Positions 2,382 to 27,150 of a DNA stretch of 64,000 nucleotides are shown in pieces. This DNA is from a virus. The stretch spans positions 88,403 to 152,402 of the IMG/VR virus record IMGVR_UViG_3300035698_019747, one strand, 5' to 3'. The translations under genes and the position numbers were made by a program. The notes below the pieces were generated by a model. The model searched no databases, was not told where the DNA came from, and saw nothing but the letters and a program-made list of their open reading frames with translations. The stretch's first letter is position 1, and each line of letters opens with the position of its first letter.

Positions 2382-4300
2382 AAATTTCTAAATATTGAAT
2401 TATTTAAGAAAGGGTCATTAATCAAAGAAAATGTAGTTGAACTATCACTTATAATATTCACATCACTTATAGTTTGAGTACTAACAGTAGTAGTTACATT
2501 AACATTAGTGTTTTCATCAGCTCTTCTTCTAGTAACAATGGCTAACTCTCTATTACTATCTCTTCGTATCTCAACATCACTATTTTCTCTTTGGAAATCC
2601 CTACCTAATTCATTTACATACTCTATACTATCACTCATAATAAATGTGCCCCCATATATAACTGAAGTCTCATTGGTTGACTCATTGGTTGAAGTAATAT
2701 AAAATACATTAACCCCACTCTGGTATATTCTTCGAACACTATTTACATTCTCTTTTTTTAATTTAAATACAACTGTTCCATTAGTCAAGTCGTTTTCTTC
2801 ACTACTTCTATATAAATCAGTACTTATTTCAGAATCGAAATTCTTGAACTTTAAACTTATCGTACCTAAATCAACCAAATTAAAATAACTTACTTTAGTT
2901 TCTACATTTTTAGCAATAGTGAATTTTATAATGTTATCAAATGGATTAATAATTAACTTTAACTTACCACTACCTTTCCATTCTCTACTATCTAATAATG
3001 ATGACTCACTTTTAACGACTACATTATTAGTACTTACTAAAACTGGCGTTGGTACCTTAACCACCTCAAAATTATTACTACTATTACTATCCCCTAACTG
3101 ATTATTAAGTTCAGCATAGTTTCTTTTATTAAGACCCTTTATAGCATCACTCAAACTAGCACCGCTTCTTAAATTATATATCTTAGCACTTTTTACATTC
3201 TTTGTATTGATACGCACAAGGCTTCTAGAGTACTTATTAATTTCTTTGGGTAAAATACCATATGATGCTGTTCTAAGTATCACAGAACCGTCTACTTGGT
3301 CTATTATACGCATAGACACATCTATTACAGCAGTAGTAGAACTATATTTTATAATTGGTCTATATTCTAATTTTTCATTGAAATCATCATATACTGAAAT
3401 ATTAATTGTTTTCCCCTTAATATTTTCCTCAAATAAAGTTATTGAATATTCAGCAAAATACCTCTTACCCATACTAACTGAATTAGTTATAAAACTATTG
3501 AATTCCGAAATATTACCATTATAAATTCCATATATATCAAACCAATCCCCCTCGGCACTTGGCTCAACTTTAATACCCATACTTTGGTAATCAGGAGTTT
3601 GTGGAAATGATGTTTGTAATGGACTTGATAAAATATAAGTAGTTATGTCATTTAATATAGTTTTTTTAGCAATAAATCCAAACTCAACCATAACAGGGGA
3701 CACCCTAGATAAACCGATATTAGATGTTAAATTATAATTTATAGTATTTGGTGAAACTATATTGTTTAATATCTGATTAGAAACCGCGTTAATAGATGGG
3801 AATGAAACTTCAATAAATTTACCCCATGTACTTCCATTTATACTTTGTGGTGGAGAAGAAATCTCTAATTCTCTATTAAACCTATTCTGATCTTGTTTAT
3901 CAAAGAAAAATTGTGATAAAGAAATTAACTTATCTTCATTACTATCAAGTGCAAGAACCTTTAAATAACAACCACCATATTCTGAGAAATTATAGTTAAC
4001 TGGAAAGTGTAATTTAATCCTATCATGTTTGATTGGTAGGTTTTGACTATATTCCTTGTCTTGTAAGAAATTATATATTGTACTATCTTTTACACCAACA
4101 CTATTTCTTATTGGATCAATGGTCACATATTGGTTAGAATACTTATTAGTTATATCAATAGTATTTTTAACTGAATAACTTTGAGTCAAATCGGTTAAGT
4201 TCTTACTGACAATATAGCTATCACCCCTTAGATAATTATCATCGTAAATGTACTCCATTAGTACATTTGAGTCAAGTTGTATAAATTTAGAATTTCTCAT
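2378..4300 (-). CDS. probable virion structural protein
   Basis: Long beta-rich ORF; start moved to ATG 4300 (MRNSKF), which follows an AATATATA motif. Confidence 0.5.
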   Translation of the reverse strand: MRNSKFIQLDSNVLMEYIYDDNYLRGDSYIVSKNLTDLTQSYSVKNTIDITNKYSNQYVTIDPIRNSVGVKDSTIYNFLQDKEYSQNLPIKHDRIKLHFPVNYNFSEYGGCYLKVLALDSNEDKLISLSQFFFDKQDQNRFNRELEISSPPQSINGSTWGKFIEVSFPSINAVSNQILNNIVSPNTINYNLTSNIGLSRVSPVMVEFGFIAKKTILNDITTYILSSPLQTSFPQTPDYQSMGIKVEPSAEGDWFDIYGIYNGNISEFNSFITNSVSMGKRYFAEYSITLFEENIKGKTINISVYDDFNEKLEYRPIIKYSSTTAVIDVSMRIIDQVDGSVILRTASYGILPKEINKYSRSLVRINTKNVKSAKIYNLRSGASLSDAIKGLNKRNYAELNNQLGDSNSSNNFEVVKVPTPVLVSTNNVVVKSESSLLDSREWKGSGKLKLIINPFDNIIKFTIAKNVETKVSYFNLVDLGTISLKFKNFDSEISTDLYRSSEENDLTNGTVVFKLKKENVNSVRRIYQSGVNVFYITSTNESTNETSVIYGGTFIMSDSIEYVNELGRDFQRENSDVEIRRDSNRELAIVTRRRADENTNVNVTTTVSTQTISDVNIISDSSTTFSLINDPFLNNSIFRNF

Positions 4301-16360: not shown

Positions 16361-16446
16361 GGTTGAGTGGTGGAATTGGTAGACACGAGGGGTTTAAAAC
16401 CCCTTGGTCAGAAATGATCGTGCGGGTTCGAGTCCCGCCTCGACTA
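16361..16446 (+). tRNA. tRNA-Leu(TAA)
   Basis: Acceptor GGTTGAG/CTCGACT, anticodon arm AGGGG-TTTAAAA-CCCCT, long variable arm, GTTCGAGTC T loop; CCA not encoded. Confidence 0.95.
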
Positions 16447-16464
16447 CTAAAAATCACATATTTT

Positions 16465-16538
16465 AGTCTAGTAGCTCAGTTGGTTAGAGCGTTTCCCTGA
16501 TAAGGAAAAGGTCGCAGGTTCAAGTCCTACCTAGACTA
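16465..16538 (+). tRNA. tRNA-Ile(GAT)
   Basis: AGTCTAG/CTAGACT, GCTC/GAGC D stem, TTTCC-CTGATAA-GGAAA; CCA not encoded. Confidence 0.95.
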
Positions 16539-16557
16539 CTAATTAAATATAATTATT

Positions 16558-18601: not shown

Positions 18602-18679
18602 GGTGGGAGATTAGGCTATGTGGTAAGTAGCACAAGCCTTCTAAAAGCTTGGACAGGGGTTCGACTCCCCCTCTCACCA
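18602..18679 (+). tRNA. aberrant tRNA-like gene (Arg-TCT with 9-nt loop, or CTA suppressor-like)
   Basis: GGTGGGAG/CTCTCACC acceptor, GCTA/TAGC D stem, CAAGC-CTTCTAAAA-GCTTG, GGGG-TTCGACT-CCCC. Confidence 0.6.
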
Positions 18680-23959: not shown

Positions 23960-24011
23960 ATTTCTTTTCTTTCTTTTATATATTAAAAAAAAATTGTATA
24001 TTTGTATAAAA

Positions 24012-24209
24012 TAGCCAGAGGTTGTATCGCTCCACGGAGAGGAAATTCAGGACAACATTGCTCACGGAAGGAGGGTTAGACAAAAGCCCGTTTGCACTTC
24101 CCAGGTTGCAACACGAACAGACTTAGTAGGTGAGCAATACTTTTATAGTCGGGTTAGTGGCAAATAGGTAAATGATACATTAAAACAGGATTCTGATTAC
24201 GCTCAGCTA
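24012..24209 (+). ncRNA. rnpB: compact RNase P RNA (rnpB-like)
   Basis: CR-I GAGGAAATTCAGG, CR-IV AGGTAAATGA, CR-V AACAGGATTCTGATTA; P1 TAGC..GAG/CTC.GCTA, P2 TGTATC/GATACA, P4 with compensatory changes; TATATTTG promoter at 23997-24004. Confidence 0.8.
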
Positions 24210-24252
24210 TTTTTTATTTTTAAACAAAAAAATTAAATACTAATATATACAT

Positions 24253-24801
24253 ATGAACAATAAAACAATCGCCATTTTTGATTTTGATCAAACACTTTAC
24301 ATGTGTCCACTCCCAACACCTGAGAATCGAGAGAAGCTATCTAAAGCTATAGATTATACAAGAAGTGGGTGGTGGGGCAGAGGTGAAAGCCTTAACTTAG
24401 ATGTATTTGATATACTTCCCAACCCACACATTAAGAGTCAGTATGATATACATTCTGAAATTGGTAATAAACGATTTATGCTAACTGGTAGAATCTTTCG
24501 ACTTAAAGAAGCTGTTAGAAATGTGTTTAGAAAAGATGGTTTTAGTTTCGATGGGGAATATTATGCAGATGGTAGAAGAACTATAGATTATAAATTAGCT
24601 ATTATTGATGAATTAGTTGAAACACACAATCCATCAACTATATATTTCTATGATGATAGAGAAGAACATATTCAAGAATTTCGTACTAAAGGGGACGAGT
24701 TAAAGGATACTAAAGGAATTGACTTTTACCAGTACCAAGTTTTTATTGATGGTTCTGGTATTATTGAAGTTCCATATGGACAGAAAGGGGTGGTCGAATA
24801 G
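24253..24801 (+). CDS. HAD-family phosphatase (PNK 3'-phosphatase / RNA-repair-like)
   Basis: IFDFDQTL, MLTGR, K, FYDDREEH. Confidence 0.8.
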   Translation: MNNKTIAIFDFDQTLYMCPLPTPENREKLSKAIDYTRSGWWGRGESLNLDVFDILPNPHIKSQYDIHSEIGNKRFMLTGRIFRLKEAVRNVFRKDGFSFDGEYYADGRRTIDYKLAIIDELVETHNPSTIYFYDDREEHIQEFRTKGDELKDTKGIDFYQYQVFIDGSGIIEVPYGQKGVVE

Positions 24802-26700: not shown

Positions 26701-26737
26701 AACATATATATTAAAAATATATATTATTATTTATTTG

Positions 26738-26809
26738 CACGCATGGTGAGACTCGAACTCACATCAACGGTTTTGGAGACCGTTATCCTACCAATTGGAC
26801 GACACACAT
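26738..26809 (-). tRNA. tRNA-Trp(CCA)
   Basis: ACGGT-CTCCAAA-ACCGT anticodon arm; G:U-rich acceptor ATGTGTG/CATGCGT. Confidence 0.9.
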
Positions 26810-26817
26810 ATTTCTTG

Positions 26818-26911
26818 TCTAGAGAACGGGATTTGAACCCGTGGAGCATACTATCTGTGTACACTCAGCCGTTTCCAAGACGACTTGCTTAAACCACTCG
26901 CACATCTCTAG
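26818..26911 (-). tRNA. tRNA-Pro(TGG) with long class-II-type variable arm
   Basis: CTAGAGA/TCTCTAG+A, GTCGT-CTTGGAA-ACGGC, 8-bp variable stem GAGTGTAC/GTATGCTC. Confidence 0.8.
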
Positions 26912-26915
26912 TTTG

Positions 26916-26988
26916 TCGGGAAGGTAGGAATCGAACCTACTAACTGATGCTTCCAATGCACCCGTGCTTAAACCTTAGTCACTTCCCG
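26916..26988 (-). tRNA. tRNA-Pro(TGG), weak D arm
   Basis: CGGGAAG/CTTCCCG+A, GGTGC-ATTGGAA-GCATC, GTAGG-TTCGATT-CCTAC. Confidence 0.75.
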
Positions 26989-26996
26989 ATATTTTG

Positions 26997-27070
26997 TATA
27001 GTAGGTGGGATTCGAACCCACGTGCTCCACATCCCAAATGTGGCGAGATAAACCTCTCCTCTACTACTAT
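26997..27070 (-). tRNA. tRNA-Pro(TGG), A1-U72
   Basis: ATAGTAG/CTACTAT+A, CCACA-TTTGGGA-TGTGG, GTGGG-TTCGAAT-CCCAC. Confidence 0.88.
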
Positions 27071-27079
27071 ATGTATTTG

Positions 27080-27150
27080 TTGGGCTAACAGGACTCGAAC
27101 CTATAATCACTCCTTCAAAGGGAGCTGTTATGCCATTTAACTATAGCCCA
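27080..27150 (-). tRNA. tRNA-Gln(TTG)
   Basis: TGGGCTA/TAGCCCA (U1-A72), CTCC-CTTTGAA-GGAG. Confidence 0.92.

Follow-up and report, generated by a model that had tools for sequence, protein, structure and literature searches.

A stretch of 64,000 nucleotides of DNA from a huge uncultured phage, hereafter the window, carries at 24008-24213 (+) a mini RNase P RNA gene of 206 nt, closed by helix P1. By its sequence, this is an RNase P RNA whose catalytic domain is of type A. Its reduced size is due to the deletion of the specificity domain and of P18. We regard it as almost certain that the element is a genuine RNase P RNA homolog, and as probable that it acts as a pre-tRNA-processing ribozyme using the RnpA protein of the host. 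An earlier note on this DNA had announced a minimised, phage-encoded RNase P RNA, and the conserved core, a hold-out covariance model and covariation bear it out. The note was also right that the RNA is short, while its size of about 198 nt needs correction, the position of P1 giving about 206 nt.

The virus record that contains the window measures 152 kb, with 28% GC and an estimated completeness of 56%. It encodes an amidase, an SSB of the gp32 type and a protein that weakly matches a tail sheath, and its nearest GenBank relatives are uncultured huge phages of 635-735 kb; Gp23 was not found in a search run without a positive control.

Detection of the element

No RNase P match reached the Rfam gathering thresholds over 64 kb or 1.3 kb, and E-value scans gave the same outcome; RF00010 matched neither the window nor the whole record, and RF02357 gave nothing on the whole record at E values up to 10. 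A narrow scan of 221 bases aligned RF00373 to 24010-24211 at 15.2 bits (E 0.012), and a covariance model built from 19 homologs, with the window excluded, scored the window at 132.8 bits, the next best match reaching 16.9. The Rfam check proposed in the earlier note was therefore negative at the gathering thresholds, with the RF00373 match appearing in the narrow scan only, and it is the hold-out family model that recognizes the element. Other members of the family match RF00010, scoring 45-83 bits (E 1e-11 to 1e-24; gathering threshold 100 bits), and thereby link it to RNase P RNA of class A. The signatures of the catalytic core had been reported to occur here in order; they do so in the canonical order, and an ordered motif descriptor found 0 matches in 100 Markov-simulated 64-kb windows.

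Scanning with a single 15-mer was dominated by chance matches, with 2 real ones among 118. L123, L129 and L135 were rejected as homologs, being chance matches in coding DNA, and L120 and many GTDB matches were rejected as mini forms, being ordinary rnpB genes with assembly gaps.

A type-A core with a remnant specificity domain

Twelve helices fit without conflict across the element, namely P1 in two parts (24008-24015 with 24206-24213 and 24018-24020 with 24202-24204), P2 to P7, one stub hairpin, P15, P16 and P17, all on the plus strand. The 5' strand of P2 (24023-24028, pairing with 24174-24179) is followed by a P3 hairpin of 3 bp (24030-24039), CR-I with the 5' strand of P4 (24039-24052), the 5' strand of P5 (24053-24056, pairing with 24105-24108) and that of the P6 pseudoknot (24058-24065, pairing with 24130-24137). 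The remnant specificity domain occupies 36 nt (24066-24101) and consists of P7 (24066-24070 with 24097-24101), a conserved internal loop with GA opposite G-N5-A (24090-24096) and the capped stub hairpin (24073-24089). The segment 24105-24159 holds the 3' strand of P5, J5/15 with the equivalents of A248/A249 (24110-24111), a 3-bp P15, L15 with its GGU motif (24152-24154), P16, P17 and the 3' strand of P6, and the segment 24160-24199 holds a short J15/2, CR-IV (24166-24174), the 3' strand of P2, and CR-V with the 3' strand of P4 (24185-24199). The canonical order is thus kept for CR-I, CR-IV, CR-V, the bulged U, the J5/15 adenines and the L15 GGU, and also for CR-IV, P2, P1 and P3. P8-P14, CR-II and CR-III are absent, so that P7 and one hairpin make up the whole specificity domain; P18 is absent as well, and 6 nt separate P15 from CR-IV.

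P4 (24044-24052 with 24191-24198) forms eight of eight pairs around a bulged U at 24047, which we take to be the equivalent of U69 in E. coli. Two compensatory changes had been counted in this helix. Compensation stands, at a higher count: relative to E. coli, there are three two-sided changes (G68-C358 to U-A, C71-G356 to A-U and G74-C353 to A-U) plus one wobble. The perfect helix that had been pointed out is likewise real in its complementarity, ATTGCTCAC (24057) to GTGAGCAAT (24130), and corresponds to P6, which has at most 8 bp rather than 9, as the outer pair of the 9-bp complementarity competes with P17. The stretch GCAACACGAACAG, by contrast, had been misread as CR-II-like; it comprises the 3' strand of P5, J5/15 (C-A-A), P15 and L15, and we reject the CR-II reading because, in 99% of cells, the bases at the start of the motif pair with P5. 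The window agrees with 34 of 36 near-invariant columns of the family, the exceptions being the P4 wobble and the A351 equivalent in CR-V, which is a G at 24189, as it also is in the homolog L233. The minimum free energy (z = -0.13) is no better than that of shuffled sequences, with the pseudoknots unrecovered, and taken alone is uninformative for this element.

Covariation and conservation among homologs

About 50 distinct homologs with this architecture came from pattern scans. Large phages hold most of them, and the majority of the loci lie in or near tRNA arrays. These homologs share the end-points of the deletions, and the nearest homolog is at most 80% identical to the window. Among 21 homologs found with a pattern that leaves P4 unconstrained, this helix is 99.4% paired against 81% after shuffling (0/2000), with A-U, G-C, C-G and U-G swapped for one another; P5, P16 and P2 (the last from 45 homologs) are paired at 99, 98 and 96% against 76, 71 and 62% after shuffling, where the controls ignore relatedness and the percentages are not probabilities. 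Of the 34 pairs in an unfitted MAFFT alignment, 25 have changed on both sides, every one of the five in P6 among them, and with slid controls pairing falls to about 40%. The bulged U, A248/A249 and GGU are near-invariant across the family, and the initial G and final A of the G-N5-A loop are present in all 12 loops of seven bases. At the level of aligned sequences, these data show that purifying selection acts on helix pairing.

The mini RNA also occurs in related phages that have genes in common with this genome, and in the 600-kb genomes of the GenBank huge phages LR745206 and LR756511 (112 and 111 bits); blastn found no cultured phage that carries it.

Some relatives have inserts in the stub hairpin. 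These are a weak match to RF00023, tmRNA-like, in L247 (5563-5693, +; E 0.0035), a G3:U70-type acceptor ending in ACCA in L222 (about 4115-4205, -), an acceptor plus T-arm in L248 (within 765-976, -) and about 400 nt inserted at that site in L223. If the nested tRNA- or tmRNA-like inserts are cut out, the ribozyme would be a two-piece one. A viral contig (L103:5855-6107, +) carries a longer RNase P RNA that has the unusual P4 of the window, part of the specificity domain and a P18-like hairpin, and is possibly an intermediate form.

Genomic context and transcription signals

The RNA element is an island of 43% GC between flanks of 8-19% GC. It is non-coding, has a divergent gene on one side and a HAD_SAK_1 gene on the other, and is flanked by phage genes including gp32 and the amidase; no ORF of at least 45 aa covers 24015-24252. 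A Bacteroidota-type -7 element, TAnnTTTG, is present at 23997-24004 (+), 4 nt upstream of P1, where the earlier note had placed a host-type promoter, and may serve as one; with 0.88 sites per kb genome-wide, the motif is weak evidence taken alone. No -33 TTG box was seen upstream of it, and a scan for sigma-70 promoters and terminators gave nothing exceeding chance. A U-tract directly after P1 (24210-24222, +), unscored by the terminator scan, is the probable end of the transcript. At its ORF starts the record has no Shine-Dalgarno sites, and A is enriched at -3 and at -11 to -13, a pattern that we take to be Bacteroidota-type and from which we infer a host of that type.

Genome-wide, a motif, AATATATA, stands upstream of 26% of ORFs compared with 4% of random stretches, for example at 23977-23985 (-) and 24240-24249 (+), and is likely a phage promoter. 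The HAD_SAK_1 gene directly downstream of the RNA (24253-24801, +) encodes an RNA-repair-type HAD phosphatase with a weak PHROG match to polynucleotide kinase. We rejected it as part of the system because it was not found beside the RNA at 18 related loci and has its own upstream motif.

The record has 12 tRNA genes in tight clusters. Candidate substrates are a tRNA-Leu/tRNA-Ile pair (16361-16539, +) and a Gln-Pro-Pro-Trp cluster with short spacers (26737-27150, -); the nearest tRNA genes lie 2.5 kb from the RNase P RNA on the opposite strand, so that here the gene is outside any tRNA cluster. The -1 base is U in 10 of the 12 tRNAs and R73-C74 is encoded in all of them, which is compatible with pairing to A248 and partial pairing to GGU, and does not show which RNase P processes the phage tRNAs. 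C75-A76 is unencoded in 12 of 12 genes (16361-16539, 18605-18678, 26737-27150) of this 28% GC genome, and the same record contains a gene of the PolyA_pol/CCA-adding family (G000:C1:33508-34632) and a Thg1 gene. A tRNA with a CUA (amber) anticodon (18605-18678, +) adjoins Thg1; since code 11 translates the genome well and TAG closes 9 of 106 long ORFs, it possibly serves readthrough rather than recoding. Also present are a tRNA-Arg with a 1:72 mismatch and a tRNA (26817-26911, -) whose UGG (Pro) anticodon sits on a Ser/Leu-like body with a long variable arm.

Relation to known RNase P RNAs

With bacterial type A RNA (E. coli M1 RNA, rnpB; RF00010) the phage RNA shares CR-I, CR-IV, CR-V, P1-P7, the bulged U of P4, the 3-nt J5/15, the GGU of L15, P16/P17 and the P6 pseudoknot. 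Unlike type A, which averages about 374 nt, it has no P8-P14, CR-II/III or P18, its P15 is 3 bp long, its P4 sequence is divergent and it is virus-encoded; the window is without an RF00010 match and its relatives stay under the gathering threshold.

In size, the RNA is like archaeal type T (RF02357; model of 208 positions), as it is in the loss of most of the S-domain and of CR-II/III, P11-P12 and P18; P15 is one pair short. Type T RNAs without most of the S-domain are active (PMC7191817). The stub is, as in type T, a stem with an internal loop, and a single T-loop has been proposed for type T (PMC3579882, PMC13462272), whose RNA was modelled with it (PMC13462272); by analogy, the G-N5-A loop recalls that T-loop. 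The phage RNA differs from type T in its P2 (6 bp instead of 3), its J5/15 (3 nt instead of 2), the missing RF02357 match and a bacterial-type core, presumably with bacterial RnpA in place of Pop5/Rpp29/Rpp30. The likeness is probably convergent.

Reduced RNase P RNAs of CPR bacteria (PMC8172020) and the short forms of Elusimicrobia and Shapirobacteria are similarly short, have lost several helices and fall under the Rfam cut-offs, but keep CR-II/CR-III and score at most 65 bits with the mini model. The short cellular RNase P RNAs at L150, L151, L197, L208 and the Shapirobacteria loci (L158, L194, L200), which lack P8/P9 and have kept CR-II/III, are a separate route of reduction. The isolated C-domains of E. 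coli and Pyrococcus cut without the S-domain or P18 and require P6 (PMC5839562). The mini RNA resembles such an engineered C-domain in lacking both elements and in having the P6 on which the C-domain depends, and differs from it in being natural and in having a conserved remnant S-domain loop. The RNase P-like RNA of camelpox virus, the only earlier viral one tested, was inactive (PMC3001073); this orthopoxvirus RNA is likewise a virus-encoded candidate, but has only partial structural similarity, whereas the phage RNA has the full conserved core with covariation.

The mini form is the only detectable RNase P RNA in several Gemmataceae

A GTDB scan found the mini family in ten MAG contigs, mostly of Gemmataceae/Planctomycetia. 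A new observation is that in seven Gemmataceae/Planctomycetia MAGs (G001, G002, G004, G005, G014, G070 and G084, with loci L165, L193, L187, L211, L168, L191 and L275, respectively) the mini form is the only detectable RNase P RNA. RF00010 matches in G001, G002, G004 and G005 are to the mini form only, and in one genus (G001/G002/G084) all 3 species have the mini form alone. G003, in turn, has a canonical rnpB and a mini copy (L153, L249), the latter in a 16-tRNA array. Across 81 Gemmataceae genomes drawn with an 85% completeness filter, canonical rnpB was found in 0 of 5 mini-bearing and 69 of 76 other genomes (hypergeometric about 3e-5, a value that ignores kinship); the sole-copy genomes are mutually related MAGs, in which assembly gaps could explain a missing rnpB. 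RnpA is present in the five sole-mini genomes tested, and no HARP scored over the cut-off in these five.

The cellular mini RNAs have the phage-type P4 and the 3-bp P15, unlike canonical Gemmataceae rnpB, and nest among phage sequences as sister to one from a 343-kb provirus record (FastTree support 0.94 in a short tree of 136 columns). Because they look phage-type and nest in this way, the data suggest that rnpB was displaced by a phage-type RNA in these cells, with both the direction and the sole-copy status inferred. Sole-copy status in several bacterial genomes also suggests that the mini form is functional, and these cases are comparative evidence that a mini RNA would work with bacterial RnpA.

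Protein partner and proposed function

RnpA was not found in this record (PF00825, TIGR00188 and motif searches; record 56% complete) or in 37 related viral records with the mini RNA, 7 of which are at least 90% complete. For this reason, the best reading is that the phage RNA borrows host RnpA. In our model, a stand-alone RNA would be transcribed from TAnnTTTG at 23997, end at the U-tract after P1 and assemble with the host protein. Metal-dependent cleavage at P4 is the established chemistry of RNase P, and here it would remove the 5' leaders of tightly clustered phage pre-tRNAs. A248 would read the -1 base and the L15 GGU the tRNA 3' end; as no phage tRNA encodes the full CCA, only prior addition of CCA would allow complete pairing to GGU. 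Recognition would be mainly of the acceptor end, with the elbow-reading domain cut to the P7 stem and the conserved loop, and the G-N5-A loop may supply one T-loop-like elbow contact. The RNA would thus allow phage tRNA maturation while the host RNA subunit is limiting or under attack, alongside the CCA-adding-type enzyme and Thg1.

An active ribozyme could instead be devoted mainly to substrates that host RNase P handles poorly, such as tRNAs with odd elbows, tmRNA- or tRNA-like RNAs and polycistronic transcripts of the phage, the loss of the S-domain relaxing elbow recognition. The near-complete deletion of that domain, the atypical tRNAs of this genome (long-arm UGG, amber, the mismatched tRNA-Arg) and the inserts in the stub of some relatives fit such a role, which we nevertheless consider unlikely, since an RNA that serves some Gemmataceae as their sole RNase P RNA should process pre-tRNAs in general, and the linkage to ordinary tRNA arrays is strong. 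Less likely still is a decoy role, in which the RNA would titrate host RnpA or exploit host RNase P in some other way, with no need for cutting. It would account for the retained RnpA-binding region (P2/P3/P4, J15/2) in phages in which no RnpA was found, and was earlier proposed as the role of the camelpox RNA; however, the bulged U, A248/A249 and GGU would hardly be so constant in a decoy, which moreover could not replace rnpB in a cell, and a phage that encodes tRNAs requires RNase P activity.

That the element is a decaying remnant of a host rnpB acquired by the phage appears very improbable. Large deletions, low Rfam scores and the A-to-G change in CR-V might be read as decay, yet the 12 modelled helices all remain intact and carry compensatory changes, although identity to the nearest homolog is at most 80%, about 50 homologs share the same deletion end-points and the GC island is maintained within a 28% GC genome; covariation largely refutes this reading. 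A chance arrangement of motifs, or host DNA mis-assembled into the contig, is scarcely credible. The unremarkable folding energy and the missing Rfam gathering match would be expected of it, but the simulated windows gave no matches, the hold-out model separates the window widely from the next best score, the flanks are phage genes and the mini RNA recurs in gene-sharing relatives and in the two GenBank huge phages. An active pre-tRNA-processing ribozyme run with host RnpA remains the preferred reading. A wider proposition, namely that large phages keep an undescribed class of active RNase P RNAs of about 200 nt, without canonical specificity domain, run by host RnpA, mobile with tRNA arrays and displacing the essential rnpB in some Gemmataceae, we judge to have an even chance of being correct.

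Novelty and significance

Our literature search, from whose coverage subscription journals were largely absent, found no report of a phage RNase P RNA and no working viral RNase P RNA; papers on annotation tools did not mention a phage RNase P RNA, and a survey of huge phages is without any mention of RNase P (PMC7162821). The novelty of a phage RNase P RNA is therefore provisional.

To our knowledge, only two trans-acting ribozymes are universal; RNase P RNA is one of them, and it is regarded as cellular. The mini family points to a gap in Rfam and provides compact scaffolds for gene-targeting tools based on RNase P. A natural bacterial-type form of 200 nt is a direct test of whether cells can dispense with the specificity domain in vivo when the small RnpA is the only protein, a standing question on the ancestral minimal ribozyme. 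The translation toolkit of phages would be extended to tRNA 5' maturation and, if the displacement of rnpB is true, a phage-type ribozyme would have taken over a universal housekeeping function in a cell.
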